Virus record (IMG/VR): IMGVR_UViG_3300027740_000003
Coordinates: 288,001 to 352,000 of that record
Direction: 5' to 3' (one strand)
Source of the DNA: a virus
Lineage: Duplodnaviria > Caudoviricetes
Length of the DNA: 64,000 bases
In this document: positions 1 to 25,404 of the stretch, one piece after another
Layout of the letters: each line of letters starts with the position of its first letter
Numbering within the stretch: the first letter of the stretch is position 1
Program-made: the position numbers and the translations under genes
The notes under the pieces: model-generated
What the model was told of the DNA's origin: nothing
The model's input: only the letters and a program-made list of their open reading frames with translations
Databases searched by the model: none

Positions 1-774
1 AAACTGTTGCATATTTTGAAGATGCCGTGGCATTTCTGCTATAGTTTCTTCTAATGCTGCTGCTGCTGCAACTACACCGGCAACATCTGGAGTTCCAGGT
101 CGGTCATTAAAATACCTTGGCCCGGTTCCATACTCTTTATATAACGCAAAGTTTTTCAAATATAACAATCCTATTCCTGCCGGCCCTCCCCATTTATGAG
201 CTCCAAAAGCGGCTATATCTACCGGTAATTGTTCAATATTTATTGGGGTTTTTCCTGGAGCCTGACACATATCAGAAAAAAGTAGGCCAATAATTTTTGG
301 TTTCAATTTTTCAATGGGTTGTATTATACCAATTTCATTTTGAACATGAGAACAAACTACACAATTAGTATCAATATCCGCCATTTCAGAAATTAAACCA
401 TTTTTATTATTTAGAATTTTTATTTTATTTTTTCTAAATATATTTTCTAATTTTTGATATACGGCAGAGTGTTCAAGTCCAGAAGAATAAATAAAACAAT
501 TATCGTCTTGTATTGATTTTTTTAAAATATCTAAACCCCAATCACAAGCCTGAGTGCAACCGCTTGTTATTATTAAATTGCCAGGATTCGTTCCCAATAA
601 TTGGGCCAATTTTGCCCTTGCTGTTTCAAGAGCAAGAGAGGCTTCTTGACCAAGACGAGACGGAGCTGAGGCATGTCCCCAACCAGCTCGAGAAGATTGG
701 AAATCAGAGTATATTTTTATTGTAGCTTTGCTCATTGGAATATGGGCATTAGCATCTAAATACAGTTCTTTCAT
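1..774 (-). CDS. iscS: Cysteine desulfurase IscS/NifS-like PLP enzyme, partial (3' end runs off the window)
   Basis: Hand translation from ATG at 774 is open to base 1: MKELYLDANAHIP...ETARAKLAQLLG...IITSGCTQA...LEHSAV...AFGAHKWGGPAGIGLLY...RPGTPDVAGV. These match the YLD, TSGATE, EH, HK(PLP lysine)xxGPxGIG and RxGT motifs. Not in the ORF track. Confidence 0.8.
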   Translation of the reverse strand, partial: MKELYLDANAHIPMSKATIKIYSDFQSSRAGWGHASAPSRLGQEASLALETARAKLAQLLGTNPGNLIITSGCTQACDWGLDILKKSIQDDNCFIYSSGLEHSAVYQKLENIFRKNKIKILNNKNGLISEMADIDTNCVVCSHVQNEIGIIQPIEKLKPKIIGLLFSDMCQAPGKTPINIEQLPVDIAAFGAHKWGGPAGIGLLYLKNFALYKEYGTGPRYFNDRPGTPDVAGVVAAAAALEETIAEMPRHLQNMQQF

Positions 775-801: not shown

Positions 802-2550
802 TTAAATCGGAATTTGATTTACGTTGCCTTGAGACAATATTATACGCCTAACTGTTCCTGGAATATGCCAATCAAAAGTGCTATTATCTCCAGAAACAAT
901 AACGCCAGTTAGATCTACAGATTGAACCAAAAAATTAGTTGCGGTTCTTGATGCCTCTGGAGCTTCTAAAATTCCTCTAGCAACACCTATTCCTGTAGCT
1001 TTTGAAACAATTACCCCTTGACTATTTGCATTTCTAGCAGAAACCACAATATATCCATCATCAAGCGTTCCTATTCCTTTTTGTTCATTTGAATTAAAAG
1101 GAGTCTGTGCCCATGTTAAATCTATATTTGTTGAACCAGATATTCTGATAGAAGCTGTTGTTCCTAATAAATTTGGCTTATCTGAAGCGTCCGACCAATA
1201 TAATGATTGCTCACCAAGAGCTTCATCAGAACTATCACCAATAAGTAATCCATAAAGATTTCTTGTTCCAGACATTCCGTATCTAGTCCAAATTGTTCCA
1301 GATAGAATAAAATCAATTGCTGAACTTGCACTGTTAAATATTTGCGAGTCGTATATTTTTATATTTACTTTAAGACCATAAGATATACTTCCCTGTGTTA
1401 TTGAACCAGATCCACCTGTAGTTCCATATGCTAATGATTGATAAAAATTAAAAGTTTTATCATCTGTTAAATATATAGATTTAACTAACAAACTGTCTCT
1501 AAAATTTATATTGCCAGAACTTGAAGGCGCAACGTTAGCACTACCACCAAAACGACAACGTGTTAAATTGCAAGCAGGAAAAGACTCAGATCTAATATGA
1601 GAATCAATACTGCATCCATCAACCATTGCTATAAACATTATATTAGTAGATATTCCCAACCTAGACTGAGCAACCCCTCCTAAAGCCAAGTCTTTTATTA
1701 AAAAAGCGACTTGTGTGGACACTGATGTAGGAGTTCTTGATGGTTTTTGATTTATTGAAAGATTTTGAATTATTGGCAAAGACTCAACAACATATGTGCT
1801 TGTTCCAGCTGGAGATACAATTGTTGGAAGATATACAGGTGCCGCTGGTACTCCACCAAATCTATTAACCGCCGCAACATTTACTCCAACGCCCCCGGGG
1901 CTTGTTGCAGCAACCCAAGCTACAGATTGTGCAGATGCCCCAGAAGTAATACGTATTCTTTGCCAAACATTTGCTATCCAATCTGCTACACCAGAATCTG
2001 TTAACATTGACACTTCTGGTGTAATATGGGACCTTTCTGTATAAGTATTTACAATGCCAGTTCTAACTGTTGTTGGCACTCCGGCAATTGTAAACAAATA
2101 TCCATTAGTGTCAATTTCAAGCATTGCATAGGAAATTACAGATTCCGCTACAACATAAACCGTTATGTCTTGTTTTAAACCTCCAACAGATAGTCTTCTA
2201 TTTAATTCAGCAAAAGTTGCAAGAGGTGCTGTTGCACTTCCAATATTTTCATCATTTCCAGTTGAAGGATCTATATACCAAGTTGCTTGACTTAACCAAT
2301 CAGGAGCTGTTGTTGATATTTCTCTTTCCCAATTTCCGCCACCAACAGCCGCAATTACAGTTATCCCATCTGGAGTAAGGCTAGAACTAGTATTTCTTTT
2401 CCAAAAACAAAGCAAACTATTTATCCAAATATATCCAGATGATGCAGAACTCAGTGCAGCTAATGTGGTTAAATTTTCAGCAACCCCAACTCTGTCAGTT
2501 AATCCTGAGCTTCCACTGCCACCAGATGTTGTATTAAAAAATGAAGACAT
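802..2550 (-). CDS. Probable virion protein, pectin-lyase-like beta-helix or tailspike type
   Basis: WYIDPSTGNDENIGSATAPLATFAE matches the motif that typically precedes right-handed beta-helix domains. Start placed at MSSFF (2550), coupled by TAATG to the upstream stop. One DGY. Confidence 0.5.
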   Translation of the reverse strand: MSSFFNTTSGGSGSSGLTDRVGVAENLTTLAALSSASSGYIWINSLLCFWKRNTSSSLTPDGITVIAAVGGGNWEREISTTAPDWLSQATWYIDPSTGNDENIGSATAPLATFAELNRRLSVGGLKQDITVYVVAESVISYAMLEIDTNGYLFTIAGVPTTVRTGIVNTYTERSHITPEVSMLTDSGVADWIANVWQRIRITSGASAQSVAWVAATSPGGVGVNVAAVNRFGGVPAAPVYLPTIVSPAGTSTYVVESLPIIQNLSINQKPSRTPTSVSTQVAFLIKDLALGGVAQSRLGISTNIMFIAMVDGCSIDSHIRSESFPACNLTRCRFGGSANVAPSSSGNINFRDSLLVKSIYLTDDKTFNFYQSLAYGTTGGSGSITQGSISYGLKVNIKIYDSQIFNSASSAIDFILSGTIWTRYGMSGTRNLYGLLIGDSSDEALGEQSLYWSDASDKPNLLGTTASIRISGSTNIDLTWAQTPFNSNEQKGIGTLDDGYIVVSARNANSQGVIVSKATGIGVARGILEAPEASRTATNFLVQSVDLTGVIVSGDNSTFDWHIPGTVRRIILSQGNVNQIPI

Positions 2551-2885
2551 TATAACCCCCAAGCTTCAATTCTAACCGTTCCACTACCAGAAACCAACCT
2601 AAACCAAATTGCGCTTATATTTCTATTATCAAAAAACATAGCTTGCGTCGGTTGTCCATTCTCCATGTCTCCATTTACATCAACTCCATTAAATGAATAT
2701 TCTATAATCCCAGATCCCTCCCAAGCCAACGAAAAACTTAAATTAGAATGTCTATAATTAAACACAACATCAGCAGTTGTATTAAATGTATATCCGTCAA
2801 CTGCTACTCTTGAAAAAGTATTATAATTAACCATTTCCCACCTAAAACATTTGGCGCCATACTTATGCCATTCTATCCATTGCAT
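2550..2885 (-). CDS. Small beta-rich hypothetical protein, probably virion-associated (start possibly 2834)
   Basis: ORF track; beta-strand-like composition; stop overlaps the next start; one DGY. Confidence 0.5.
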   Translation of the reverse strand: MQWIEWHKYGAKCFRWEMVNYNTFSRVAVDGYTFNTTADVVFNYRHSNLSFSLAWEGSGIIEYSFNGVDVNGDMENGQPTQAMFFDNRNISAIWFRLVSGSGTVRIEAWGL

Positions 2886-2899
2886 ATTTTGACATTTTT

Positions 2900-4042
2900 G
2901 TGATTATGGCAACACTTGATAATATGGCCGACCAGGCCCTAGATATTGCCGGAACTTTATACCAAACTGATGATTTGGATAAAGTAGACGAAGCAGCACA
3001 ATTAGGAAGACCTATTCAGGTCGGTGCCACTGCATCTATTTTAGGAATTGCTCCGAATTTTACATTATCTGGTCTTGTCGGAATGTCTCAACAAAGCGTT
3101 GGTCATTTCATTACTATAGAAAATGCAAACTCTCCAGGTAATAATAATACTTGCCGTGTTCTAGCTTATATTAATCCAACTACAATAACTATTTTAAATC
3201 CTGCCGGCTCCGGCGGAGATCTAAATAACGGATCTTTGTACTGGATCGAAAGATATCCTTGGTCAGCAGAAGATGACCATAACTTCCACAGAACTGATAG
3301 AGCAGATATTAAAGGCGTCGCTTATGACCAATCTGTTCCAACGTATGTTAGATGTGTTAACCAAAATGCACAAGTTCCGGCTAATCTAGCCAATATTGCT
3401 GGAAAAACAACAGATGCCAAAGCCTTCGTTGATAATATTAAATTTTTAAATGTTAGTGTTAGTATCAGCAACACATTTATTACATTAAATAGTCCTGGAA
3501 ATTTAAAACATGCCAACGCAACAGACATTACAGGTGTTCCCATCAGTGATGGATATGACTCTGGAAATGATGAAGCTACATTTGTTGGTATTATAAAAGA
3601 CGGTTATGGATCGGAACTGACTGTATTAAGAACCGTTGATGGTTATGTTCAGGCTGGTTGGAGAATTTTCGGAAAAACAAGGGCAGGATCTGCACTGTCC
3701 CCTAACTCTGTTGAAATTGAATTATTTGCTATGCAAAATGGCGGGTCTTTAGATAACGCACTTCCTTATACTTGGGAAATAGGACAACCAACATTAGTTC
3801 ATCTAATTATAGGATATAGAAGTTGTTTATATAATCTTTCTGAAATAGCTTTTAGAAAAGCGTTGATATATTCTATGTTATATGGAGAAGAAGATCTTCC
3901 TGCTCCTAATGGTATTGGGCAGGTTTTAATGGCAATAGACGGAACAAGATTTATTCCTGCAATGCCGGTGACATCAATTAACGGATGGCTGGTTAATGAC
4001 GAAGGTATATTAATTGTTAATGATATATATGGAGAAGTATAA
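2900..4042 (+). CDS. Hypothetical virion structural protein
   Basis: 380-aa ORF, first of a tightly packed plus-strand block; likely ATG at 2906; three DGY motifs. Confidence 0.55.
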   Translation: MIMATLDNMADQALDIAGTLYQTDDLDKVDEAAQLGRPIQVGATASILGIAPNFTLSGLVGMSQQSVGHFITIENANSPGNNNTCRVLAYINPTTITILNPAGSGGDLNNGSLYWIERYPWSAEDDHNFHRTDRADIKGVAYDQSVPTYVRCVNQNAQVPANLANIAGKTTDAKAFVDNIKFLNVSVSISNTFITLNSPGNLKHANATDITGVPISDGYDSGNDEATFVGIIKDGYGSELTVLRTVDGYVQAGWRIFGKTRAGSALSPNSVEIELFAMQNGGSLDNALPYTWEIGQPTLVHLIIGYRSCLYNLSEIAFRKALIYSMLYGEEDLPAPNGIGQVLMAIDGTRFIPAMPVTSINGWLVNDEGILIVNDIYGEV

Positions 4043-5730
4043 TGGCATTTCCTGGTGATAGAGCTTGGAAACTTAAAAGAACTGTTCCGTCTGCTAAAAT
4101 TTACGGAACTCCTTCACACGATTGTTGGTTAGTATTAACTCACGACAATTTGCCTGATGCAATGATTACCCTTGGCGGAGCACAAGGAATGCAACAATAT
4201 GCTGCTGATTTAGCAGCCAGCTCAGATTCCGAAGGATTAACACGAATTCCTCTATGGGTTTGTAGGGCAGATTTAGACGCAACCCCTGCAAACAGTCGTG
4301 TAGAAATATGGATACGTAGACAAGATGTGTCAGACACTTTAGATACAGATGTTTGGTTGTGGTGGGGATCTGCCGTAGAAGTTGCACCAGGAGTGACAGA
4401 AGATTATGGTCGAAATGATGTTTGGAATGGAACTACAGGAACTGGAATTCCAGTTGTATCATGGGCAGTATGGATGTTTGACGAGGACCCTGCCGCTCCG
4501 GCCCCGGCATATACAGACGTTTCTGGAAATGGACATCATGGATATGTTTTTGGAACCATAACACGTGTTGATTGTGCTCCTGGTAGAGGTTTAAGCACAG
4601 TTGCTGGAGGTGGCTGGGTAGATACAGCAAGCACAACGTGGGCTCCCGGAACAGGAGACTTTTCCGTAATAGAAGTATATCAACGCTCCGATGCAACCAG
4701 AGCTGGTGGTTCATATTTTAACGTCAATGAATTTGCTTTAGGCCCTGATTTCATATCTGCTACATTTAATACTGGAAACTATACATGGATGGTAACACAA
4801 CCTGTAGGAACCCCATATTTGGTTGGAGGATCTAGAGATGGCGATAATTTTACCATGTATTTAGATACGGCAATTCAAAATGATACAGGATGGTCAGAAG
4901 TTAATGCTTCTAGTTCTGGAGCATTAACTGTGGTTTGGGATTACCATTCAGATACTAGATATTGTTCTTTCTTAGGACTTCTTAATAGTGCCCCCAATTC
5001 ATATTGGTGGCGTACTATGTATGAAAATATTATTGCTGGTTCTTTTTGGGACGAAACAGGAACTATCCAACCAGCAGCAATTACTGCACAAATATATTTT
5101 GATGGTTTACAAACAAATTCAGAGGTTAGAATATATGAAACCCCACATACTCAAATCTGGACCGCAAATTTCGCCGGCCTCACCTCACCATTATTATGGG
5201 GAGATTATATAGCTTTTCAAATCCAAAGAGCCTCATCAACAGAAAATCATTATGCTTGGTTTACTAATTCAGAAGACGGATATGCAGACCCTGCAATAGC
5301 AGAAAGTATAGGCCATAAAGTAGTAGTAAATGACGGATATACAACAACACAAATTGCAACAAAATTTGCATCTGCAATTGATGGTTATGCAGATGTATCA
5401 GCTGTATCATCAGTTGCAATTGCAACTATTACTAATGATAGAAATGGACAAACAGATGAACCTACCGATGGAGGAACTTTAGCCACTTTAACAGTTGTAC
5501 AAATAGGAGGAACCGCTACAACTGAAATAGATGGCATAGAAAATAGCACAGGATCATCATGGACAGCAGAATATCAAGTTATTAGACCAAGACGCGCTAT
5601 TATCCATATAATACACTTGTTATATCAAAATAAAAGATATAGCACTATTTTAAACACATCGGGGTTGGTTGTTCCAGCCGGTGCTCTGCAAATTATAGAC
5701 AGACAATATTCAAATCCAGCAGGTCCATAA
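4042..5730 (+). CDS. DUF2341-like plus LamG/concanavalin-A-like virion protein (tail or receptor-binding associated)
   Basis: N-terminal DLAASSDSEGLTRIPLW...VEIWIRRQDVSDTLDTDVWLWWG resembles DUF2341; VWMFDE...DVSGNGHHG resembles a LamG start; three DGY. Confidence 0.6.
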   Translation: MAFPGDRAWKLKRTVPSAKIYGTPSHDCWLVLTHDNLPDAMITLGGAQGMQQYAADLAASSDSEGLTRIPLWVCRADLDATPANSRVEIWIRRQDVSDTLDTDVWLWWGSAVEVAPGVTEDYGRNDVWNGTTGTGIPVVSWAVWMFDEDPAAPAPAYTDVSGNGHHGYVFGTITRVDCAPGRGLSTVAGGGWVDTASTTWAPGTGDFSVIEVYQRSDATRAGGSYFNVNEFALGPDFISATFNTGNYTWMVTQPVGTPYLVGGSRDGDNFTMYLDTAIQNDTGWSEVNASSSGALTVVWDYHSDTRYCSFLGLLNSAPNSYWWRTMYENIIAGSFWDETGTIQPAAITAQIYFDGLQTNSEVRIYETPHTQIWTANFAGLTSPLLWGDYIAFQIQRASSTENHYAWFTNSEDGYADPAIAESIGHKVVVNDGYTTTQIATKFASAIDGYADVSAVSSVAIATITNDRNGQTDEPTDGGTLATLTVVQIGGTATTEIDGIENSTGSSWTAEYQVIRPRRAIIHIIHLLYQNKRYSTILNTSGLVVPAGALQIIDRQYSNPAGP

Positions 5731-5733
5731 TTT

Positions 5734-6261
5734 ATGGTTACAGCTCTACACAAAGATCATGGCGTTCCAGAAGGTATTCATCAAATATATAACTGGAATT
5801 TTGTCAATGAATCTACAAGATTATCACATATTTATCTTTCTAAAGATATAGGCAAAGTAGCAAGACAAACAAATGACAATACGTTTTGGCTGCTAACAAA
5901 TTATTTCCCCACAACATTTGTTCAAATTGGAGGTTCCGGCTCATTAACCCCAACAAATCATCAAACTCTAAGACAACTAATTCATTTGGCCTTTGGAGGC
6001 CCATTCGAGGGTTTCTCAGGTGCTTATAAAGAAATTTTACCAGTAAGCGATCCCTTCCCAACAAATATTACTTGGTGGACTAATTCTAGTAAAACAAATA
6101 AAATTATTGAAAAAATAATAATAAGAAACGACTCTCAAATACCAATAGTAATAACATATAACGTTTATGAAATAGATGGAATTACTATTGAAGCGTCTGC
6201 AATTGATAATATTGTTTATAATGGAATATTCGAAATTAGCAGAGAAAGGATTATTATATGA
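5734..6261 (+). CDS. Hypothetical virion protein
   Basis: 175-aa ORF; DIGKVARQTNDNTFWLL segment resembles the small protein at 8541-8756. Confidence 0.55.
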   Translation: MVTALHKDHGVPEGIHQIYNWNFVNESTRLSHIYLSKDIGKVARQTNDNTFWLLTNYFPTTFVQIGGSGSLTPTNHQTLRQLIHLAFGGPFEGFSGAYKEILPVSDPFPTNITWWTNSSKTNKIIEKIIIRNDSQIPIVITYNVYEIDGITIEASAIDNIVYNGIFEISRERIII

Positions 6262-6629
6262 GTGATAGCCCTGCTGTAATATTATATGACGGATACAGTA
6301 ACCCGGTTGTTATTGAAAATAATACCGAATTTCCATCGTCTCAAGGAATTGTTCCTGTGGGAGGAATTACTACAGACGGTTATGCATCTGTTATTTTATT
6401 AAATAATGACGGAACTCTATCTTCTTATAAAAAAACAGAAAGATTTGAAAAAATCACAGTTGGAACAACAGATACTATCTATATGGGAGAGGCTGTGCCA
6501 GGATCTGCTGAAGGATCTTCGGTATGGCTAATTAGACGAGTAATAATTACAGATAATTTTCCAGTATCAATAATGATATCTAACGAAAATGTTTCTTGGA
6601 ATAATAGGAATATTATCGAATATTATTGA
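6258..6629 (+). CDS. Hypothetical virion protein
   Basis: 123-aa ORF overlapping the previous stop (ATGA); YMGEAVPGSAEGSSVWLIRR; two DGY. Confidence 0.55.
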   Translation: MSDSPAVILYDGYSNPVVIENNTEFPSSQGIVPVGGITTDGYASVILLNNDGTLSSYKKTERFEKITVGTTDTIYMGEAVPGSAEGSSVWLIRRVIITDNFPVSIMISNENVSWNNRNIIEYY

Positions 6630-6650
6630 ACAATAATATAAGGTGAATAT

Positions 6651-8057
6651 ATGGCTTTAATTGTAGACCCAGATTATCTTCATGATGCTCCAAATTCCAG
6701 CTCTTTAGATGGATATGAAGTTTTTATAGATACTACTAATTTATATATACAGCTTAATATTGACGGATATCTATCAACCGATGGCGTCACCATTAAATGC
6801 TTATATTCATTTTTAAAAGAAGAATGGCGGCTTGATCCTAATGCAAAGAATCTGGCGGCTTTTCCTTTCCCCATGACGCCAATTACGGATGAATCTTTCG
6901 AACTCACAGATGGGTGGAATTTTGACGGATATCAATCACAATATTTGATTAGAACAGGTGGCTGGACTGTAAGAAATATTTCTGGCAACGTCACGGAAAA
7001 ATGGTCCGGAATTATCGGATTAGGCACAATCCAAGCCGATGATCAGCTATATTTCTATCAGGGAGTTGATGCCGAAAACGTTCAGCTACAGGGGCAAGTA
7101 AACCAAGCAGTAACGGTCCTCAGTGACCCAAATGGTGACGGAACCTTTACTGACGGCTATGATTATAGAACTGCATTTACTATATTCTGCCGCGAGTATC
7201 AGCAGACATATGACTCATCAAATCTTGCTGACATCGGTGTTACTACCATGGATTCGATTGCTTATCGTTTCCCCCTATCAACAGCAACAGATTTAAAAAT
7301 CACTCATAACGATTCAACCGTTTCCACAACAGCTCCTTATACAGGAATGAGCATTACTTATTATGCAACTCCACAATCAAGAACAATTGGAAGTTCAAGT
7401 TATAACTTTGGTATTATCATAAATGGAAATAGTGGAACCGCAGAACAAATATATGAATTTGTTCAATATAAATTAAGACAAAATTCAGATATCGATGCTG
7501 GTGCTGGTATTGTTATTGGTAAAACGGCAGATGCTTTGTTGGGATTTGTCGGAGACACATTATATACCAAGACTGCAACAAACCCATCTGGGGGCGGAAC
7601 AGGTGTGTTTATCGACAACTATCAGGTCGTAGATGTTAACAGACTGGTGCTTACTGACAACACTGAAACAGAAAGAACCTTCCCTTATGTTGCTGCTTTA
7701 ACAATAAACGTCGGCGCAAACCTTACTGGAGATGCGGCTGCTAAATATTGGGTATATTTCACAACTTTACCAGGTGGAGCAGATTACGGAACATCATTGG
7801 CGGTTATTACTGAAGACGCAGATGGTTATGATATGTCTGGAGATATAAGCGGAGACGCCTCAATTCAGCATTCATTTGCTTATGATACAAATAATCAAGG
7901 GGGCAGAACTCCAGCAACAGATGCAGTAATAACTGTAGTGGCAATTGGACTTAGTACCGGACAATATGTTAGAGCAACTGGAACAATTGCCAGGTCTACA
8001 TCTAACGTAGTTTCGTTGGTTGCTGCTCTCGAAAGAAACTACTCTAACCCAGCTTAA
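6651..8057 (+). CDS. Virion structural protein with N-terminal LYSFLKEEW...DGW domain
   Basis: 468 aa, AAGGTG RBS, five DGY; N-terminal domain related to 8079-8540 and 59635-60057. Confidence 0.6.
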   Translation: MALIVDPDYLHDAPNSSSLDGYEVFIDTTNLYIQLNIDGYLSTDGVTIKCLYSFLKEEWRLDPNAKNLAAFPFPMTPITDESFELTDGWNFDGYQSQYLIRTGGWTVRNISGNVTEKWSGIIGLGTIQADDQLYFYQGVDAENVQLQGQVNQAVTVLSDPNGDGTFTDGYDYRTAFTIFCREYQQTYDSSNLADIGVTTMDSIAYRFPLSTATDLKITHNDSTVSTTAPYTGMSITYYATPQSRTIGSSSYNFGIIINGNSGTAEQIYEFVQYKLRQNSDIDAGAGIVIGKTADALLGFVGDTLYTKTATNPSGGGTGVFIDNYQVVDVNRLVLTDNTETERTFPYVAALTINVGANLTGDAAAKYWVYFTTLPGGADYGTSLAVITEDADGYDMSGDISGDASIQHSFAYDTNNQGGRTPATDAVITVVAIGLSTGQYVRATGTIARSTSNVVSLVAALERNYSNPA

Positions 8058-8078
8058 CCAACCCGAGAGTAAGATATA

Positions 8079-8540
8079 ATGGGATATATTTTTGATGGAT
8101 ACAATGCTATAATTATATTAGATTCAATTGAAGAATTTAATATCGAAGATTTGTATTCTCGTTGGAAAGAATGGGTTCTAGACGGATACTCACAATATCC
8201 TGTTGCCTTCCGAACTCTTGGTGGGGACCCTATCTCTGCAACTCAAGAAATTGCCCCCTATTTTTTCTTAAATACAACTGATGGTTGGAGAATAAGACCT
8301 TATGAATCAGATCATGAACTCCATATCATAGGAAACTTATATCCAGAAAACCCATTGGATCCTATGTTTACTCCAACATTGGGAGAATATACCGTATTAG
8401 TCACTATAGAAAGATCTTCATCAGCCATAGCTTTTGAGGTAAATACAGGAAGTGGATTAACTCCAACACAAAGTATGTGGCTAGAAACCCTATTTAAAAA
8501 TATTCCACTTCAAACCATTTTATCATTAAGGGCAAAATAA
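8079..8540 (+). CDS. Virion protein, LYSxWKEW...DGW domain family
   Basis: DLYSRWKEWVLDGY...FFLNTTDGWRIRP is similar to the N-terminus of 6651-8057; two DGY. Confidence 0.55.
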   Translation: MGYIFDGYNAIIILDSIEEFNIEDLYSRWKEWVLDGYSQYPVAFRTLGGDPISATQEIAPYFFLNTTDGWRIRPYESDHELHIIGNLYPENPLDPMFTPTLGEYTVLVTIERSSSAIAFEVNTGSGLTPTQSMWLETLFKNIPLQTILSLRAK

Positions 8541-8756
8541 TTAAACAACAATAGTTGCCACTAGCCCCCAGGAAATTGTTGCAGTGTCCAATAAAATATA
8601 AATCTCATTTGTATCTAATTGTATTGCCAACTTATATTTATCATATGCTTCAAATGGCCCGGCGGCTAATCTTTCTACAGAATCAATATACTCAAACGAA
8701 ATAGCCGAGTGTAATCCTTCTAATATCGTCTGTGCTGTATGTCTAGCTTCACTCAT
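8541..8756 (-). CDS. Small hypothetical protein
   Basis: 71 aa; its stop abuts the convergent plus-strand stop; start overlaps the stop of 8753-9349. Confidence 0.55.
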   Translation of the reverse strand: MSEARHTAQTILEGLHSAISFEYIDSVERLAAGPFEAYDKYKLAIQLDTNEIYILLDTATISWGLVATIVV

Positions 8757-9349
8757 ATTGCCACCACATAATCTGCCACTAATACACTACTCTCCTTAGG
8801 AGAAAAATTCAATATTATTGTGTCATACCCAGTCCCGGAACCACCACTCTCTACAAGATAATAATCAACACTCTCCACTAAAACTCTACCATTATGCCTA
8901 AGCAATATACGAAAATCGTTGCTTTCATGTATTCCATTAATAAATTTATCCGAAGTAGTAAATGTTCTATTCACCCCATCTAATACTCCAATAAGATCTT
9001 CTCCCTGTTTAAATGCATAATCCAAATCAGCCGTTCCTCCGCCAGGTGTTATTCCAACCGTTATTCCTGCATCTAATAAAAACTGCCTATGGCATTCATC
9101 AAATTGATACAATTCTATGTTGCTCTCAACTACACGTATTTCTCGTGCCCTTATCTTAATATTTAAATCTCCTTTCAATAATGAATGACGAATAACGTCC
9201 TCAGAAACATTCGGAATAGCTAGCAAATCCCTAACCATACCATTCCCAATAGGTGTGTGAAAACACTTTATACGTTTCCCTTCTGGCGCAATGTTTTGAA
9301 CCTTGAATACTACAGGACATTGCTTGTGTACAAATGTCCGATATCCCAC
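8753..9349 (-). CDS. Hypothetical structural protein
   Basis: C-terminal GVLDGVNRTFT...HNGRVLVESVDY pattern is typical of phage tail or baseplate accessory repeats. Confidence 0.5.
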   Translation of the reverse strand: MGYRTFVHKQCPVVFKVQNIAPEGKRIKCFHTPIGNGMVRDLLAIPNVSEDVIRHSLLKGDLNIKIRAREIRVVESNIELYQFDECHRQFLLDAGITVGITPGGGTADLDYAFKQGEDLIGVLDGVNRTFTTSDKFINGIHESNDFRILLRHNGRVLVESVDYYLVESGGSGTGYDTIILNFSPKESSVLVADYVVAI

Positions 9350-9350
9350 T

Positions 9351-10148
9351 TTACTCCTTTACTTCATCGGTTATTGTAATAGTCACGGTTCTGGAAACTT
9401 TCTTCTCTCCATCCCTACGAATATTATTGTTCCCAAATATTGCTTCAATTATATTCTGCTGTGCAGTCTTGTCTCCGGTTATTACCATAGGACCACTAGA
9501 TGCTTTACTAACCCCGCCAGTGTTCTCTAAATATACTCCCCTCTTCAATAAATCCTCGTCCTTATTCAATATAGCCTTTTTAAGATCTCTTGAAGACATC
9601 TTTTTTATTTCTTCCATGCTTAATCTATATCTGGCAAATAATAATTGTTCCAAATATGATACCTGAGGTGCAGATATATCTTGGTCTCCTTGTTTTATCC
9701 TCAAAGTCCTTCCTACATGATCCGATAATACACGAGCATAACTGTCATGATATTCTGCCTCTTTACCATAAAATTCTTTAATATCATCCAATACATTATT
9801 TAATTTGGCAAATATAGCAAGTTTCTCCTGCATATCCTCATCTATAAATTGATCTGCCCTGTGCCAATATTGTAATGCTTTACGAGGATTTCTTTGCTCT
9901 TCTTGATCAATATGTCTAGTGTCTATTGCAAATTTCTTTATTGTTTGTGAAGACGCTATCTTTATAAGAGCTGCTTTTCTGGCACTTCTACGAACCGAAG
10001 CAGGCTCTTCTTCGCAATCAATTATATAAATGCGTTTTGCAGGTATTTCTACAGCTCCAGCTTTTGCCATCTCATAGAAATCTTCTGAAATCCTTAATAA
10101 AAGCTCAGCATTACCAGATAATGTAAGTTTCTGATCACTAATGGTCAT
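9351..10148 (-). CDS. Hypothetical head-module protein
   Basis: 265-aa helical ORF downstream of the capsid gene; LIKIAS motif. Confidence 0.6.
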   Translation of the reverse strand: MTISDQKLTLSGNAELLLRISEDFYEMAKAGAVEIPAKRIYIIDCEEEPASVRRSARKAALIKIASSQTIKKFAIDTRHIDQEEQRNPRKALQYWHRADQFIDEDMQEKLAIFAKLNNVLDDIKEFYGKEAEYHDSYARVLSDHVGRTLRIKQGDQDISAPQVSYLEQLLFARYRLSMEEIKKMSSRDLKKAILNKDEDLLKRGVYLENTGGVSKASSGPMVITGDKTAQQNIIEAIFGNNNIRRDGEKKVSRTVTITITDEVKE

Positions 10149-10165
10149 CTTATAGAAATACGACT

Positions 10166-10468
10166 TTATGCGTCCTCAGATACATTTCCAACTGCTTTGG
10201 CAGCATTAATGATACTTCCAAATTCATCAACAGATAATCCTGAGGATCCTAAAACCTCTCTCCTAATATGCAAAAAGAAACTTGGTCCATACAGTCGCCC
10301 AAATTCCTTTTTTAAAACGCTTTCACCACACTGCAAGGCGTGAGTGGCAGCATCATCCGAACCATTGTCAAACAGCCTTTTGGCTAGTTTATATGCAACG
10401 TAAGCTAACTCCTGGCTCTCTTGCAAAGACGCATACTTGGAAAATAATTTTGATAATTTATGAATCAT
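10166..10468 (-). CDS. Small hypothetical protein
   Basis: Start moved to MIHKL (10468) because the longer ORF-track start overlaps the capsid terminator. Confidence 0.5.
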   Translation of the reverse strand: MIHKLSKLFSKYASLQESQELAYVAYKLAKRLFDNGSDDAATHALQCGESVLKKEFGRLYGPSFFLHIRREVLGSSGLSVDEFGSIINAAKAVGNVSEDA

Positions 10469-10491
10469 ACTATTATATCTTTTTATTAGTG

Positions 10492-10532
10492 GACAAACAA
10501 AAACGGCCTCCCTTTTCAAGGAAGCCGTTTTC
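10492..10532 (-). terminator. Intrinsic terminator after the major capsid gene
   Basis: Minus strand AAAACGGCTTCCTT-GAAA-AGGGAGGCCGTTTT followed by TGTTTGT. Confidence 0.75.
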
Positions 10533-10569
10533 AATTTTTATCCATCACTAGGATTTGTTCCTAAGAACA

Positions 10570-11583
10570 TTATCCAACTAGCGTGCTCTTCCGACCTGCC
10601 GAAATTCCTCGCGGGTTCACAATGCCGATACCAATTATTTCTGATACCACCCAACCGAGTTTTAACTGTTTTGGTTCGTCAGCTGGTAAAACTTCAATTT
10701 CCTGTCTAACAGGCATAACACCAACGAACTCAGGATCTGCACAAGCATATACTGTTCCTGGGGGAACAATCTTGCTAACCATTATGTCTGCGCCCCAAAT
10801 ATGAGCATAAAGCCCTGTCTGGAGAATTTCACGCTGGCTAACAGGATCAATCTCGCCCTGTCCAACAGTACCACCACCGGATGCCCAGTTAAGAATATCA
10901 GTGTACTCACTGATGTTCATGAAATACTTGGTTGTGACGTTGTCCCAACGATCAATTTGAACCTTGAGCTCAACAAGATCACGCTTAAGCATTCCCTGGT
11001 CAGCAATGTCCTGAATGGTATTTTCAACACTTGAAGCTGCATCAATAGCCGCAAAGACGTTAGCGTCTTCCTGGGCCATAATTTCCTGACGTGCCTTCTG
11101 AACAGCACGGTCAATGATGTTAAATCTGCGTCTCTTTACTTCCGCAATTCTAACAGTTGGATTCGAGAAAATCTCGAATTCAGGAATGGTCACTCTGTCG
11201 CCGAATACACGGCTTTCTGGACCGGTACCATTTGAGGACACAACTACTGCTGTGACATCAATATCACGGTCATACACAGGGAGAGCTCCCTGAGGAAGAG
11301 GATCAACAACCAGTGCTCTACGAGCAATTCCCTGGTAATCTAAGTTACGACGGATAGGATTTGCCATTGCTTGAGCAAGAGCAATTTTGCCTTGCTGCGA
11401 CATAATGGCAGACTCTACTAGCTGATCTCTACGATCTGCCGAGAGTTGAGGCTGACCAGCAAGAGCTAGATTAGAAGGAGCGTTCTCCTCTAGAATAGCT
11501 GCGAACTTTGCCAGCTGCATGAATGCATCTTGAAGATTGCTTGCATTCATCTGACCTTTGCTATTAAACAGTTGACTATACAT
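10570..11583 (-). CDS. Major capsid protein (HK97 fold)
   Basis: LAQAMANPIRRNLDYQGIARRALVVDPLPQG and VPPGTVYACADPEFVGVMPVR...GWVVSEIIGIGIVNPRGI closely resemble, from memory, Bxz1-type capsids. AAGGAG RBS, strong terminator and high-expression codon usage. Confidence 0.9.
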   Translation of the reverse strand: MYSQLFNSKGQMNASNLQDAFMQLAKFAAILEENAPSNLALAGQPQLSADRRDQLVESAIMSQQGKIALAQAMANPIRRNLDYQGIARRALVVDPLPQGALPVYDRDIDVTAVVVSSNGTGPESRVFGDRVTIPEFEIFSNPTVRIAEVKRRRFNIIDRAVQKARQEIMAQEDANVFAAIDAASSVENTIQDIADQGMLKRDLVELKVQIDRWDNVTTKYFMNISEYTDILNWASGGGTVGQGEIDPVSQREILQTGLYAHIWGADIMVSKIVPPGTVYACADPEFVGVMPVRQEIEVLPADEPKQLKLGWVVSEIIGIGIVNPRGISAGRKSTLVG

Positions 11584-11647
11584 ATTTTTATTTTCTCCTT
11601 ATTTGCCTGTCATAAACCGGCTAATAATTTATATTGGGGTTAAATGA

Positions 11648-11674
11648 GGGGCGGACAGAAAATCCGGCCGCCCC
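11648..11674 (-). other. GC-rich stem-loop between the decoration-like gene and the capsid gene
   Basis: GGGGCGG...CCGCCCC stem with no clear U-tract; possibly an mRNA processing or stability element. Confidence 0.45.
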
Positions 11675-11688
11675 ACAAGTTTTATTTA

Positions 11689-12357
11689 TTAATACTCTGG
11701 ATCGAAATGAATTACGACCTGAGTAAATGCTACCTGAACAGGAGTCTGAACTAGGTAATTAGGTGTAGTCACCAAACTGCCATTTGTTGAGAATTCAACA
11801 AGTCTTGCAACAACAAGGTTTGCTGCGTCAAATGAATCACCAGATGAAACTGGAGTCAAAAGACCTAAAGCTGTTGCTGTAAGAGGTTCGCCAACATCAA
11901 GTAAAGCATTGCTTGGAACAAGACCATCAGCTGAAGTATCAACAGATGCTAATGTCACTGCATATAGACCGGGTTTATCCCAAAGGGTAACCTTGCCGGA
12001 ACCAGCACCAGTGTGTGGACCATAGTTATTACCAGTTGTATTCTGACCAGCAATTGTCCCAATTACTGCACCGAACAGAGTTCCATAACCAGTTGTTCCT
12101 TCATCAGCAAGGAATACGGGTCGTTGACCGTCTGGTAGGAAGCGAGTGACGATAGGACGATATTTTGTGGTTGTTCCCACATAACCGTCAGATCCGTTTG
12201 CATCAGCAGCAGCTTTATCTGTTCCAGTAATGTCATAGTTAACTAAGGTAACTACTTCACCACCAGTAAGAGCAAAAATGCTGCCTGTAGTGACTAGAAT
12301 GTCATAACCATCGAATTGACCGAGTGGATATATTGCCTGTAATGGTTTAAGAGCCAT
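11689..12357 (-). CDS. Probable capsid decoration or cement protein
   Basis: Directly upstream of the capsid gene; beta-rich; GSGKVTLW motif shared with 19038-19730; two DGY. Confidence 0.6.
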   Translation of the reverse strand: MALKPLQAIYPLGQFDGYDILVTTGSIFALTGGEVVTLVNYDITGTDKAAADANGSDGYVGTTTKYRPIVTRFLPDGQRPVFLADEGTTGYGTLFGAVIGTIAGQNTTGNNYGPHTGAGSGKVTLWDKPGLYAVTLASVDTSADGLVPSNALLDVGEPLTATALGLLTPVSSGDSFDAANLVVARLVEFSTNGSLVTTPNYLVQTPVQVAFTQVVIHFDPEY

Positions 12358-21393: not shown

Positions 21394-24300
21394 TTAATAC
21401 TTACGTCCCGCAAATGCCTGGTCAAATGCATTCTTTAACTCATCGTCATTACTTCTTGGAGAAATATAATCAGTTGATAATGCAACAGACTCTTTAATAC
21501 CTACCTCAGGAAGAGAGGCTGTTTTGGAAGGAATCCTTCCAACTGTCTCCTGAAGATATGCAAAGTTCTCATCAGAACAATTCATAATCTTCTCGACCTG
21601 ACTGCGTAAACTACGTGGGTCCCTGGCAACTAGGCCTCTTGCAGCCATGTCATAAGCAAGTTCATATGCCCTTGCTACCTTGACTTTAAGAGCCTCTTCA
21701 TTTGCAGCTGCTTTCTTTTCAGTTGTCCCTTTAACAAGCTCACTTACCCATCTGCTAGCTTCTGGATCCTTTGCTTCTCCCCAGAACTTCTTCCAATAAG
21801 ATACCGCTGCCGCATCAAGCCCCTCAGCAATCAAACCTGGGAAATCTGTCTTTGGATCAATTGTTCCTGCAAGAACTAGTTTCTGAATCTTCTCAGCTGC
21901 TTCCCTAACCTTGCCAGGTGCTTTAGTTGCTACTTCCATTGCCTTTGTATGGACTTCTTCAAGATCCTCTACCTTGGCAAGATCACCAGTTGGCTTGGTA
22001 TCAAGGTCGGTTGTAAACCCGCCCTGAGGATGTGCTTTCGATAACATGTCAGAGAAGGTAGTTCCTTTTTGGGCAAGTTTGGTCCGTAAAATATCTCTCT
22101 CTTCTCTTGTCATATTTGCAATCCTCTTTGTTGATGCTTTTGTCTTAAGTGTCTCTGCTACCTCCGTTGGAGTACCTTCTAAATCTGCTGAACCGTCTTC
22201 GTTTACCTGTACCTTGAGATCATTGCTGTCTCCACAACCAATACAGCCTTCTTCTAATACGTTCATTAGTTCATCAAGATCGTTGCTGTCTGATGCTCTC
22301 TGACCAGCTGTTGGTCTTGGTGTAATACGTTGTCCTGCATCTGGGGCTACTGGAGGAGCCACTACTGGTGCTTTTCCAGAACCTTCTTGCAAAGAATTAG
22401 AGCCCGTTGAACCTACTGGAAGAGTTCCTGTTGGCAACCTCTGTGGTTTTTGATCAATAACATCTGGAATCTCTTGAGCAGTCTTCTTAAGATTAGTAAT
22501 AGCATTTGCATATCTAACAAATGAAACCATCATCTTGTGTCCAGCCGATTTTGCTTTCTCAATGTCTGGCGATGCGTCTACAAGAAGTTCCGTAGTCATT
22601 CTAGCAGAGCTAGCTGTTCCATCACTATTAACCTTCTCAATTAGCTTTAACTCATCAGTCATATCAGAGATTTCAGCAAGAGCTTGCTTAATTCCCTTAC
22701 GAAGACCATAACTAAGAGTCTTACGCATTGAACCAAGAGTAGTTGATGCTGTTGCTACTGGTACCTCTGGAACATCCAGATCTCCTGCCTGCTCTTCTTC
22801 ATCAAGAGCTTCAACTGCTTTTTCAAGATCAGCAGAAAGATTACCTAGTTCACGAACCTTATCTTTAACCTGATCTGCTGGAGAACCCGTCTCTCCTGTT
22901 GGCTCAAAATCACCATCCGGAGGAACCGCAGCTGCTGGATTTGCAGCAGGTGTTTCGCCTGGTCCAGGAAGTGCCGGAGCAGGAGCCTGTGCTCTCTTAA
23001 CAGAAGCATTTGCTAATACTCCCTGTGATGCAGGAACTACTGTCCCAACATCTTCAATTTCAAATGGAAGATTATATCCCTGAGCAGCAAGATCTCCCCA
23101 TTCGTCAGTAGATAATGGTCTAGTTTGACCATTTGGCATCTTTACAACGAAATCGGAAGATGTATATGCTGTTTTTACTGATGCAGTGGCGTTTATTGGT
23201 CCAAGATTAACAGCTTGCCTTGCGGTATTAACAACTGCTAATAGCTCCTGCATTTCATTAGACATAAGTATTGTTCTTGCAGTAGACAGTTCTTTATTAA
23301 TTGAAGCTGATATGTCTTTACCCTGCATAAAACTAATAACTTGTCCCCAATTTCCATTAGTGTTAGCTACCTGAACTTTATAATGCAAATTAACAAGTGT
23401 CATTAAATTTGCGGCGCGGAGTTTATCACGAAGGCCTGTGCCTGCTCTATTTGGTTGGAAAGCTCCGGGACCAGCCGACTCACCAGCATCAGAATGTCTT
23501 CCTGCATTAAAGTCGCCACCAGCATAAGGATGTTCACTAGGGCTCTGGGCACCTTTAAAAATTGCCTTGGCTGTATTCACACCCTCACTTCGGATTACAT
23601 CAATCATCTTTAGACCGTAATCTTTAGTAGCAATGCTAGAATAAAGAGAAGCAACTCTTTCCTGTCCAGCTAATTCTCCAACTGTTGCAGAGAATACTAG
23701 GCGGCTCTTGCTATCATCGCCCTTAGCATATACTTGCCACTGCGAATCAGCAAGGTTATCAGAACCATCTTCATTAGAGGCTTTAATGAACTTTGCATTC
23801 AGTTTAGCTCTATTAATAAGTTTCTTGGTTTTCTCATCGTCTCCATAAAGGCCATCAATTTTTCCGACGCTGGGGAATGGAGAAGCTCCAACCATCTGCT
23901 TATCTTCTTTATCACGAATTTTATCTGAATCTTCTTTTGGATACTTTGGCTTGCCAGGAGTTGGCTCATTAACATCCCCACCACCCTGGAAGTAAGCTTC
24001 TCGCTTCCTTTGAATATTTTGCTGAGCTTTTTCTAAAGCAGCTTGTCTGCGAAAACTTCTTGCCTCAGCCTCAGAAGCAGCCCTCAGAAGCTCTTTCTTT
24101 TTCGCTTCGTCATCACCCCAAAGACCATCAGAACCTTCCTCGGAAGTCCCGAGCATCTGCTTGTCTTGAGTATTACGAATCGAGTCAGCTTCTTCTTTTG
24201 GATATTTGACCTGACCGGGAGCTGGTTCATTTACTCCGCCACCACCCTGAAAATAAGCACTCTTCTGATTAGCCATTACTGTATCCTTTTTGTTTTTGTT

Positions 24301-25404
24301 ATTGCTCTCTTTAACAGAAGCCATTTTATTGATAAACAAATCTAATTTTTCTATCTTTTCTTTCAAAATATTTAACTCACTTGCATATCTGGCCGTATTT
24401 GCAGCCTGAGGAACATTTCCTTCTGGAACCTGCTCTCCTGAAATTTCTTTCATCTCAGGACTAACTCCCCTTTGAGCATAAGGGTCCTCTCCTACTAATA
24501 TCTCATTATTAGCTATTTGCTGTAATTCTTTTCTAATTTGTTCTGCTTCTATAATTGCAGCATCAGTTGTTATACCTGCTTCGTCCAATTTTTGCTTATC
24601 ATCATAAGCTGCAACTTTATCAGCTGCTGCAATTACTCTACGAATCTTTGCTCCAGGATCCGCTCCATTTACAACAATAGATAATTCAATTGGAGAAAGG
24701 TCTACGTTAATCTCTCCATAACCACTTTTTGATTTCATGTGTTGACAAAAATCAGACTCAACTCTGGCAACACGATGACAGCCTTTTTCAGTACATATTG
24801 CTCTACCAACAGCTACTCCCATCGAGACGTCAGCAGAATATCCACTAGCTACCTTTCTTGCTAAATCAGGATAATTCTCTTTATCCAAAGCACATAAAGC
24901 AATAATACGCTGTCTCTTGTCATCCCAGACAGTATCAACAATAACTCCACGAATATAATCTACAGAACTTGATTTATGATCTAGACAAAGGGGTTTTCCA
25001 ATCCATTTCTTGAATGCTTTTTTAAGCTCTTTTGCTGGGAAAATATCTCTATTTGCATTTTTATAACCGCCAATAGAAGAATCGTTGCAATGCCATATCC
25101 AACTTCCATCTGTAGTTTCTTCCCAACTAGATTGAACATCCTCTCCATTAGCAGTCTTTTTTAAATTCCCATCGTCATCTAGCAAAGCAGCTTCAGCTGC
25201 GTGCATCATAATACAAGTAAAATAAAGAAAACCATTTGCTTTTGGAGCAATTCTCTTTCCAGAAGCATCTACGGCTTCTTTCTTTAAGAAGGCAACTTTT
25301 TCTTTAAAATATTGAATTACTTCAGGATCTTCATCTAAAGATGATGAATCAAGAAATCTATTATTTGCAATATGTGCGCTTGCAATTTTGATAATTCTAT
25401 TCAT
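21394..25404 (-). CDS. Prohead (capsid maturation) protease fused to a long scaffold or internal-protein region
   Basis: KPLCLDH (candidate His), DVSMG (candidate Ser) and IELSIVVNGADPGAKI match HK97-type prohead protease motifs; Cys cluster follows; long helical C-terminal region with many K-x-A sites. Start set at MNRII (25404) with GGAG RBS. Confidence 0.75.
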   Translation of the reverse strand: MNRIIKIASAHIANNRFLDSSSLDEDPEVIQYFKEKVAFLKKEAVDASGKRIAPKANGFLYFTCIMMHAAEAALLDDDGNLKKTANGEDVQSSWEETTDGSWIWHCNDSSIGGYKNANRDIFPAKELKKAFKKWIGKPLCLDHKSSSVDYIRGVIVDTVWDDKRQRIIALCALDKENYPDLARKVASGYSADVSMGVAVGRAICTEKGCHRVARVESDFCQHMKSKSGYGEINVDLSPIELSIVVNGADPGAKIRRVIAAADKVAAYDDKQKLDEAGITTDAAIIEAEQIRKELQQIANNEILVGEDPYAQRGVSPEMKEISGEQVPEGNVPQAANTARYASELNILKEKIEKLDLFINKMASVKESNNKNKKDTVMANQKSAYFQGGGGVNEPAPGQVKYPKEEADSIRNTQDKQMLGTSEEGSDGLWGDDEAKKKELLRAASEAEARSFRRQAALEKAQQNIQRKREAYFQGGGDVNEPTPGKPKYPKEDSDKIRDKEDKQMVGASPFPSVGKIDGLYGDDEKTKKLINRAKLNAKFIKASNEDGSDNLADSQWQVYAKGDDSKSRLVFSATVGELAGQERVASLYSSIATKDYGLKMIDVIRSEGVNTAKAIFKGAQSPSEHPYAGGDFNAGRHSDAGESAGPGAFQPNRAGTGLRDKLRAANLMTLVNLHYKVQVANTNGNWGQVISFMQGKDISASINKELSTARTILMSNEMQELLAVVNTARQAVNLGPINATASVKTAYTSSDFVVKMPNGQTRPLSTDEWGDLAAQGYNLPFEIEDVGTVVPASQGVLANASVKRAQAPAPALPGPGETPAANPAAAVPPDGDFEPTGETGSPADQVKDKVRELGNLSADLEKAVEALDEEEQAGDLDVPEVPVATASTTLGSMRKTLSYGLRKGIKQALAEISDMTDELKLIEKVNSDGTASSARMTTELLVDASPDIEKAKSAGHKMMVSFVRYANAITNLKKTAQEIPDVIDQKPQRLPTGTLPVGSTGSNSLQEGSGKAPVVAPPVAPDAGQRITPRPTAGQRASDSNDLDELMNVLEEGCIGCGDSNDLKVQVNEDGSADLEGTPTEVAETLKTKASTKRIANMTREERDILRTKLAQKGTTFSDMLSKAHPQGGFTTDLDTKPTGDLAKVEDLEEVHTKAMEVATKAPGKVREAAEKIQKLVLAGTIDPKTDFPGLIAEGLDAAAVSYWKKFWGEAKDPEASRWVSELVKGTTEKKAAANEEALKVKVARAYELAYDMAARGLVARDPRSLRSQVEKIMNCSDENFAYLQETVGRIPSKTASLPEVGIKESVALSTDYISPRSNDDELKNAFDQAFAGRKY

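Follow-up and report, generated by a model that had tools for sequence, protein, structure and literature searches.

An exact Asp-Gly-Tyr tripeptide is selected for on outward-facing virion proteins in a clade of phage-G-like megaphages and may serve as a glycosylation sequon

We analysed a 64,000-nucleotide stretch (the window; positions 288,001–352,000) of the 435,004-bp virus genome IMGVR_UViG_3300027740_000003, in which a first-pass annotation, made from the sequence alone, had noticed that the tripeptide Asp-Gly-Tyr (DGY) recurs in probable outer virion proteins at 802–12357. The virus was placed as a relative of phage G, the major capsid protein (MCP) in the window being 51% identical to Bacillus phage G gp27. 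In this phage as in its close relatives, the proteins on the outside of the particle contain DGY about 10–20 times more often than expected by chance. It is a short linear motif that has come under lineage-specific positive selection on predicted exposed loops of outward-facing virion proteins in one clade of phage-G-like megaphages. The window codes for two kinds of carrier, a probable capsid decoration protein and small accessory proteins that form a block, and the rest of the genome adds sheath, baseplate-periphery and fibre proteins. A mechanical call of open reading frames (ORFs) found 19 DGY in eight ORFs at 802–12357 and reproduced every per-ORF count of the first-pass annotation. The carriers, together with one family member whose window copy has no DGY, are:

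802–2562, minus strand: 586-amino-acid protein, rich in Gly, Ser and Thr, no family match; one DGY at residue 502 (nt 1051–1059)
2550–2885, minus strand: 111-amino-acid protein; DGY at residue 30 (nt 2790–2798)
2900–4042, plus strand: 380-amino-acid virion-associated protein; three DGY at residues 217, 234 and 247 (nt 3548–3556, 3599–3607 and 3638–3646), all in predicted loops
4042–5730, plus strand: 562-amino-acid protein, no family match; three DGY at residues 412, 431 and 447 (nt 5275–5283, 5332–5340 and 5380–5388)
5734–6261, plus strand: 175-amino-acid protein of the plus-strand block; no DGY in the window copy
6258–6629, plus strand: 123-amino-acid protein; DGY at residues 11 and 40 (nt 6288–6296 and 6375–6383)
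6651–8057, plus strand: 468-amino-acid protein of a very large phage family; DGY at residues 20, 38, 92, 168 and 391
8079–8540, plus strand: 153-amino-acid protein; DGY at residues 6 and 35 (nt 8094–8102 and 8181–8189)
11689–12357, minus strand: 222-amino-acid probable capsid decoration protein, directly upstream of the major capsid gene; two DGY at residue 57 (nt 12181–12189) and residue 16 (nt 12304–12312)

The eight host proteins sum to 2,605 amino acids, for which 0.72 DGY are expected. For all ORFs at 802–12357 (3,773 amino acids), the amino-acid composition predicts 0.86 (Poisson 2e-19), in keeping with the rough figure of about one given in the first-pass annotation. Shuffling within proteins, the enrichment test it had suggested, yielded a mean of 0.92 DGY and a maximum of 6 in 5,000 shuffles, and the second most deviant tripeptide at 802–12357 reached only p ~3e-4. 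When the expectation is built to first order on how often DG, GY and G occur, with the DGY sites included, it rises to ~3, sixfold under the observed number. The hosts had been described as unrelated, and indeed they have no detectable mutual similarity (all pairwise BLASTP E-values > 0.1); PHROGs and Pfam searches returned no family for any of the eight. The impression that DGY stops at 12.4 kb was borne out by a count of zero in the 49 ORFs (16,947 amino acids) past that point, a number that is not significant by itself (2.6 expected, P ~0.08).

The decoration-like ORF holds the same position as phage G gp26, which is annotated as capsid decoration, and has no sequence similarity to gp26. 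The top fold matches of its model are the decoration proteins of phiCD508, T1, FCWL1, Pam3 and Sf11, all of them weak (E of at least 0.25, template-modelling (TM) score 0.40–0.56 by target), and we consider it a probable capsid decoration protein. Residues 36–122 of the 380-amino-acid protein form a small beta-barrel resembling phage tailspike and tail-tip proteins at a borderline score (VIA-align Z 7.9), and a Foldseek search of its model against the PDB gave no convincing match (TM ~0.18). The ESM Atlas model of ORF 6651–8057 was poor and gave no usable structural match. For comparison with relatives we used IMG/VR, in which 368 contigs carry this capsid protein; the relatives' loci are the best 80 of these 368, with capsids 76–89% identical. 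ORF 802–2562 has a single homolog in these 80 loci and is therefore hypervariable. The 33 orthologs of ORF 5734–6261 hold 43 DGY against 2.1 expected, so this ORF belongs to a DGY-bearing family and has lost its sites here.

Six genes at 2900–8540 form the only plus-strand block of an otherwise minus-strand region. The block is mostly kept in one of the four other complete genomes (G001) and in a syntenic relative (L206), is missing from two others, and looks like a variable cassette. Within it, ORF 6651–8057 has relatives of 45–65% identity in many phages of far smaller size (most contigs 5–80 kb) and next to a portal gene on an NCBI contig of 2.4 Mb; this family has undergone wide exchange between phages.

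The codons at the window sites vary (GAT/GAC, GGA/GGT/GGC, TAT/TAC), from which selection on the peptide had been proposed, and the genome-wide data agree. The nonamer GAYGGNTAY occurs 122 times in the genome against 43 for a reversed control, and 105 of the 122 are in frame. Its excess tracks the coding strand, even across the strand switch inside the window, and no out-of-frame or non-coding excess was found. Gly and Tyr codon usage at DGY sites equals the background, and so does that of Asp in four of the five complete genomes; this genome alone departs, with GAC encoding 43% of the Asp residues at DGY versus 22–27% elsewhere. Residues flanking DGY show weak preferences only, Val and Ile being mildly favoured after the motif. 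Because the excess is in frame only, codon usage is, apart from this GAC bias, at background and flank preferences are weak, selection acts on the tripeptide itself. The over-use of GAC in this genome would speak for a DNA-level site of the form GAYGGNTAY, serving methylation, recombination or regulation. Such a site does not explain why the excess is limited to a single frame of whichever strand is coding, why four relatives use all synonymous codons at background frequencies, or why the reversed-pattern control is flat. A gene-calling or composition artefact is likewise at odds with long ORFs and conserved homologs, and we find it scarcely credible that either produced the signal.

The selection is also exact. 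In the ORFs at 802–12357, DGF, EGY, NGY and DSY are at or under expectation, and neither DG without Y nor GY without D is enriched. The family of the 380-amino-acid protein shows the same for near-cognates (NGY 3 vs 7.8 expected, EGY 0 vs 4.5, DGW 0 vs 1.9).

The motif extends beyond 802–12357 of the window: DGY is also found on sheath, baseplate-periphery and fibre proteins far outside it. The whole genome contains 105 DGY versus 21.7 expected, and 82 of them (7.1 expected) lie at genome 195–300.4 kb among tail, baseplate and fibre genes. The enriched region spans from ~93 kb ahead of the window start to window position 12.4 kb, and given this genome-wide distribution the coordinates 802–12357 are just the last tenth of a far larger feature. 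The remaining genome is near background (23 DGY vs 14.7 expected), as is an enzyme block within the virion region (1 vs 1.6). The richest carriers are giant fibre-like proteins with 19 DGY in 1,208, 8 in 1,003, 7 in 943 and 7 in 2,230 amino acids; a 553-amino-acid protein outside the window has five, and the tail sheath has three, all in its N-terminal part. The 1,667-amino-acid protein with a tail-lysin match in the tape-measure position has no DGY, nor do its neighbours. Past 12.4 kb the window codes for head-internal or non-virion functions, including a recombinase, a DNA polymerase and a CCA-adding enzyme. The DGY-free genes of the window used as contrast are:

10570–11583, minus strand: major capsid protein (phrog_2522), no DGY
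12443–38108, minus strand: block of head-internal and packaging genes, DGY-free by ORF counts, identified by family matches
21394–25428, minus strand: 1344-amino-acid protein with a prohead-protease domain; residues ~124–320 match prohead maturation protease families
33111–34955, minus strand: portal, in the DGY-free block
36234–38108, minus strand: large terminase, in the DGY-free block

The 1344-amino-acid protein is a prohead protease fused to a very large uncharacterised region. A K-x-A pattern is in mild excess over 12.4–34 kb (75 vs 50 expected), and the 265-amino-acid protein in the scaffold position (9351–10148, minus strand) has 7 K-x-A versus 2.1 expected.

Two further features lie in or beside the giant carriers outside the window. 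The 1003-amino-acid DGY-rich protein (genome 239300–242311; L093:11300–14311, minus strand) contains, by eye, two dockerin-like calcium-binding repeats (GDVNGDGYITSADV... and ADVDGDGIVSAIDV...). Three tandem paralogs of 230–242 amino acids with Laminin_G_3 (concanavalin-like lectin) domains (genome 201641–203777; L091:11641–13777, minus strand) sit between the two DGY-richest fibre genes, and the four other complete genomes have none.

DGY had been thought of as a genome-specific tag, and this part of the first-pass annotation has to be widened to the whole clade. The 80 relatives' loci hold 373 DGY versus 50 expected, while the permutations GDY (50), YGD (28) and DYG (15) are at or under expectation. 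Orthologs of the decoration-like protein in these loci account for 105 DGY (3.3 expected) and those of ORF 2900–4042 for 54 (2.2 expected); the 80 capsid orthologs (27,156 amino acids, 3.2 expected) and the orthologs of the scaffold-position protein 9351–10148 have zero. The genome-wide ratio of observed to expected DGY is 4.8 here and 5.4, 3.6, 2.9 and 2.3 in the four other complete genomes, so that all four share the trait. Across the five genomes, the sheath, 1003-, 2230-, 553- and 1728-amino-acid and decoration families bear DGY, and the capsid, scaffold-position 9351–10148, 1667-amino-acid tail-lysin, 709- and 734-amino-acid families are free of it, a split that is maintained though the proteins are only 30–60% identical.

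Outside the clade the signal fades. Homologs of ORF 6651–8057 in other phages gave us 80 control loci (mostly contigs of 5–80 kb), in which we counted 67 DGY versus 74 expected, with every related tripeptide near expectation, and an unrelated 332-kb phage without the GT4-like glycosyltransferase gene described below has 16 versus 16.8. The count is 28 versus 17 in a phage-G-like megaphage at a greater distance (capsid 43% identical), and in the more distant MCP relatives Tunturi_5, LR745208 and Rctr197k the DNA pattern shows no clustered excess. In Bacillus phage G itself, the giant proteins gp420–gp431 (L090:16784–47676), beside the XkdX gene, hold 14 DGY versus 2.2 expected. These controls and relatives indicate that the trait is strong in one clade, faint in outgroups and absent elsewhere. 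Phage G is thus a cultivable phage with a weaker form of the DGY bias; no cultured phage gave a megablast match to the DNA studied here.

Individual sites turn over rapidly. In the family of ORF 2900–4042, 67 homologs hold 143 DGY (8.1 expected) in 27 alignment columns (22 site clusters), none of which has DGY in all sequences, and parsimony on a tree of the 67 sequences requires at least 73 gains or losses. The other sequences show unrelated tripeptides at DGY columns. ORF 2550–2885 has DGY in five different alignment columns across 10 orthologs. In a syntenic relative of ~70% identity, the corresponding gene block holds 13 DGY; this relative has only ~8 of the 19 window sites in common and carries five DGY in a 321-amino-acid protein where the window has a 71-amino-acid ORF. 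ORF 6651–8057 has > 3,400 database homologs at 58–87% identity; 98 of its 120 closest homologs are without DGY, and only a trio of sequences at 82–100% identity reaches five sites. These sites lie within conserved flanks, in which relatives show the intermediate states VGN -> EGY -> DGY, AGA -> DGV -> DGY and LND -> DLA -> DGY. Such stepwise states in conserved flanks argue for directional selection for the exact tripeptide and not for an inherited fold element. The independent gain of sites, raised in the first-pass annotation as a check, is observed, with a single exception: residue 57 of the decoration-like protein, kept as DGY in 61 of 62 orthologs, is the sole conserved site of the 19. 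Residue 16 of the same protein alternates between DGY (20 sequences) and DGL (28), and the remaining window sites are minority alignment columns or missing from most homologs.

Structure prediction places the sites at loops, as far as predicted secondary structure and the predicted local distance difference test (pLDDT), rather than side-chain exposure, can define them. In the AlphaFold2 model of ORF 2900–4042 (pLDDT 86.9, 48% coil), all three window DGY are in loops, and 112 of the 118 family occurrences that could be mapped onto it (95%; 17 of 22 columns) fall on predicted coil; a further 25 occurrences are in insertions. The invariant residue 57 lies in a low-confidence loop of the decoration-like model (pLDDT 78.5). 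The enrichment is significant and the sites are not conserved residues of a buried core, the two points on which the first-pass annotation had expected its idea might fail.

Asp-Gly is a classic tight-turn pair, and DGY might be a favoured element of a beta-turn and strand start that was passed on by descent or copied in repeats and has no function of its own. At residue 16 of the decoration-like protein (DGL/DGY) and at residue 217 of the 380-amino-acid protein (DGF/DGA/DGY), the first two residues stay DG and the third changes, some DGY of the 1208-amino-acid fibre protein are in obvious tandem repeats, and the mild preference for Val or Ile after the motif points the same way. Nevertheless, same-fold homologs in other phages do without the motif, as the 98 of 120 homologs and the control loci show, the sites have taken the place of unrelated tripeptides (TAS, NP- and LND among them), only one site is positionally conserved, the hosts are unrelated, and DG and GY are not enriched apart from the full tripeptide. 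This reading is largely refuted, and we hold it to be very improbable. For turn preference, descent, a DNA signal and composition alike, more than one independent test gave a contradictory result. The data call for a function of the exact tripeptide; all these trivial explanations taken jointly remain improbable. The evidence supports the view that DGY behaves like a tag.

Searching the genome for glycosyltransferases or other modifiers, as the first-pass annotation had suggested, uncovered a set of GT2 domains, a GT4-like protein, a 318-amino-acid GT-B-like protein and a WecB epimerase. Most of these lie in an enzyme island at genome 225.7–239.2 kb, which abuts the DGY-rich 1003-amino-acid (8 DGY) and 2230-amino-acid (7 DGY) genes and a baseplate wedge gene:

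within genome 225.7–239.2 kb: WecB UDP-N-acetylglucosamine (UDP-GlcNAc) 2-epimerase, island member
within genome 225.7–239.2 kb: seven GT2 domains, one of them in a 925-amino-acid protein with a DXD sugar-binding domain
within genome 225.7–239.2 kb: GT-B C-terminal fragment, island member
genome 238028–239233: 401-amino-acid GT4-like protein, GT-B fold by domain match

The matches of the 401-amino-acid protein are marginal (Glyco_transf_4, 29.7 bits vs a cut-off of 28.5; a PDB group-1 glycosyltransferase for the C-terminal half, E = 0.0012), and no NCBIfam model matches it. Its EX7E motif is well kept in 21 orthologs, with E291 invariant and E299, eight residues away, at least 90% conserved. 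The protein is present in all five complete genomes at 43–56% identity. So is the 318-amino-acid GT-B-like protein, next to a flavin adenine dinucleotide (FAD)-dependent oxidoreductase beside the other fibre cluster; the oxidoreductase (412 amino acids) is found in all five genomes at 45–54% identity. Among 19 GT4-like loci fetched, all 18 that include upstream DNA show the same order of two DGY-rich giant genes, the GT4-like gene and small enzymes almost without DGY. The nearest glycosyltransferases of cultured phages (Streptomyces phages) are only ~22% identical. A 250-amino-acid ORF between two fibre genes (genome 198048–198800) has no Pfam match and a homolog in one of the four relatives.

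The GT2 complement varies with the motif. Pfam GT2 domains number 7, 5, 3, 2 and 0 in the five genomes, paired with DGY ratios of 4.8, 5.4, 3.6, 2.9 and 2.3. The more GT2-like genes a locus has, the higher is the DGY density of the adjacent giant genes (Spearman 0.67, p = 0.006, n = 15, a figure that ignores kinship and includes one duplicate pair). Loci without GT2 still have ~10 times the expected DGY density, and the GT2 enzymes therefore cannot be the primary reader.

On these grounds we propose that DGY could be an acceptor sequon for cytoplasmic protein glycosylation, with a sugar probably O-linked to the tyrosine that the Asp-Gly turn presents. The first sugar would be added by the clade-conserved 401-amino-acid GT4-like GT-B enzyme, possibly with the 318-amino-acid GT-B-like protein, and the variable GT2 enzymes and WecB epimerase of the adjoining island would extend it, so that the particle would bear a glycan coat whose attachment points are movable by mutation. 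What the data establish is the enrichment of DGY, its specificity, its turnover, its place on loops, its limitation to the clade and the gene neighbourhood; the modification as such, its identity as a sugar, its attachment to Tyr and the enzyme that reads the motif are points that we infer. The sequon proposal fits the gene neighbourhood, the covariation with GT2 and the lack of DGY in inner proteins and enzymes, and glycans linked to tyrosine have a precedent in the S-layers of Firmicutes (PMC2943079).

Several observations weigh against the proposal and leave the case circumstantial. Phage G, with its weaker enrichment, has no detectable GT4-like ortholog, and one complete relative (G003) keeps the enrichment without any GT2 domain. 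Phyletic profiles give the glycosyltransferases no special place, since 63 of the 78 genes conserved in the five genomes are likewise missing from the two control phages. The capsid protein, also exposed, is without DGY, and the invariant residue 57 of the decoration-like protein would equally fit a structural or binding role. Glycan islands of large phages could act instead on DNA or on the host envelope, and what would tie a sugar to the motif is throughout a matter of position and correlation. Weighing both sides, we give a glycosylation sequon read by a phage GT-B enzyme slightly less than an even chance. Tentatively, and again short of even, we put forward the fuller proposal that DGY is the sequon of an undescribed phage-encoded, cytoplasmic, tyrosine-directed glycosylation that coats the whole exterior of a megaphage and whose sites evolve as fast as the glycan sites of animal-virus envelopes.

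The specificity, loop location, turnover and clade restriction of DGY require a reader and leave its identity unspecified. It might be the enzyme of a different Tyr- or Asp-directed modification, or an accessory, chaperone or cement protein that docks on the motif during assembly. Points in favour are the FAD-dependent oxidoreductase conserved in five genomes beside the 318-amino-acid GT-B-like protein and fibre genes, and the enrichment in phage G without the GT4-like enzyme; the invariant residue 57 would suit a binding contact. On the other hand, no sulfotransferase (PF13469) is encoded in the genome, and its sole kinase-like gene lies at a distance from the virion genes and lacks conservation across the clade. 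Among possible accessory proteins we found none that is conserved and still lacks an explanation; the three Laminin_G_3 proteins next to the richest fibre gene are missing from the other four genomes. A docking site that roams the loops of a dozen unrelated proteins is also harder to picture than an enzyme sequon. We therefore regard such a reader as unlikely, but as an alternative to be kept in mind.

The motif could also work with no reader at all. Asp with an aromatic residue is a common sugar- or metal-contacting pair, and an Asp-Gly turn followed by tyrosine might form a weak micro-site for a polysaccharide, a mineral surface or a metal, giving the particle multivalent stickiness. The restriction of the motif to loops of outward-facing parts, where number matters more than position, would agree with this. 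An intrinsic site should tolerate near-cognates, however, and NGY, EGY, DGF and DGW are at or under expectation, EGY being seen only as an intermediate toward DGY. Confinement to one clade and adjacency to glycosyltransferases would also be left unexplained, and we consider an intrinsic micro-site rather improbable.

If DGY is a glycosylation sequon, its nearest counterparts differ from it in several respects. Mycobacteriophage virions are reportedly glycosylated by phage-encoded glycosyltransferases (Freeman et al. 2023, Cell Host Microbe, as cited in PMC12619734). In that system as in this clade, glycosyltransferase genes lie among structural genes and virion surface proteins are the shown or presumed substrates, and modification takes place in the cytoplasm without export machinery, as it would in our reading of this clade. 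We know of no defined tripeptide sequon described for mycobacteriophage virion glycosylation. Unlike in mycobacteriophages, the exact D-G-Y is found here on a dozen or more unrelated proteins, from the decoration protein to the fibres, and the glycan is a prediction from genes. Bacteroidetes reportedly use a general O-glycosylation sequon, D-(S/T)-(A/I/L/V/M/T) (Fletcher et al. 2009), which likewise has three residues with Asp first and occurs on many unrelated exported proteins. There the acceptor Ser or Thr directly follows Asp, whereas here Gly intervenes and Tyr is the only hydroxyl residue; that system is cellular and periplasmic, the proposed DGY system viral and presumably cytoplasmic.

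The glycan sequons of animal-virus envelopes shift on exposed loops, and the capsid protein of chlorovirus PBCV-1 has atypical sequons that are glycosylated by virus-encoded enzymes. DGY resembles the former in that short sequons come and go on exposed loops at a density that stays steady, and the latter in that a virus would have its own enzymes and its own non-canonical sequon. Both are N-linked to Asn in eukaryotic hosts; here the host is bacterial and the residue probably Tyr. In the S-layer proteins of Firmicutes (Paenibacillus alvei, Thermoanaerobacter), the sugar is O-linked to tyrosine (PMC2943079), which provides a Tyr acceptor on a self-assembling surface protein in bacteria-associated systems (PMC2943079). 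These glycans are built on a lipid carrier and moved outside the membrane by an oligosaccharyltransferase (PMC2943079), whereas the proposed phage system would be cytoplasmic; no oligosaccharyltransferase or flippase turned up in the genome, where no dedicated search for them was made. The S-layer review reports no DGY sequon (PMC2943079). A full-text literature search found no publication on a DGY motif in phages, and a multi-omics paper on phage G makes no mention of DGY or virion glycosylation.

Three other genes of the region stand apart from these findings. The portal gene is separated from that of the large terminase by a 392-amino-acid transposase at window 34952–36130 (minus strand; phrog_506, E = 5e-126), apparently an insertion sequence in a megaphage packaging module. 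A NifS/IscS-like cysteine desulfurase gene at window 1–774 (minus strand; Aminotran_5, E = 2e-35), which continues to genome 287671–288774, adjoins the DGY-bearing virion genes; it has the same position in the syntenic relative L206 and is found in two of the four complete relatives. Outside the window, a 409-amino-acid ORF with a LAGLIDADG-like domain (genome 282120–283349; L096:120–1349, minus strand) lies among neck and tail genes and may be a homing endonuclease.

Within the clade, DGY can be used as an annotation aid that sorts outward-facing virion proteins from inner or non-virion proteins without a family match. Should the reader prove to be something other than a glycosyltransferase, a tripeptide created repeatedly on a dozen unrelated proteins would still be a testable signal of an unknown interaction. 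If DGY is a modification sequon, phage biology would gain its first sequence rule predicting which virion proteins are modified, and where, and no protein-modification sequon would have been defined in a bacteriophage before it. Engineering could then draw on a tag of three residues together with its matching enzymes. Some of the largest known phages would bear a glycan coat, which could affect their adsorption, their stability in soil and sediment, and their recognition by host defences and grazers.

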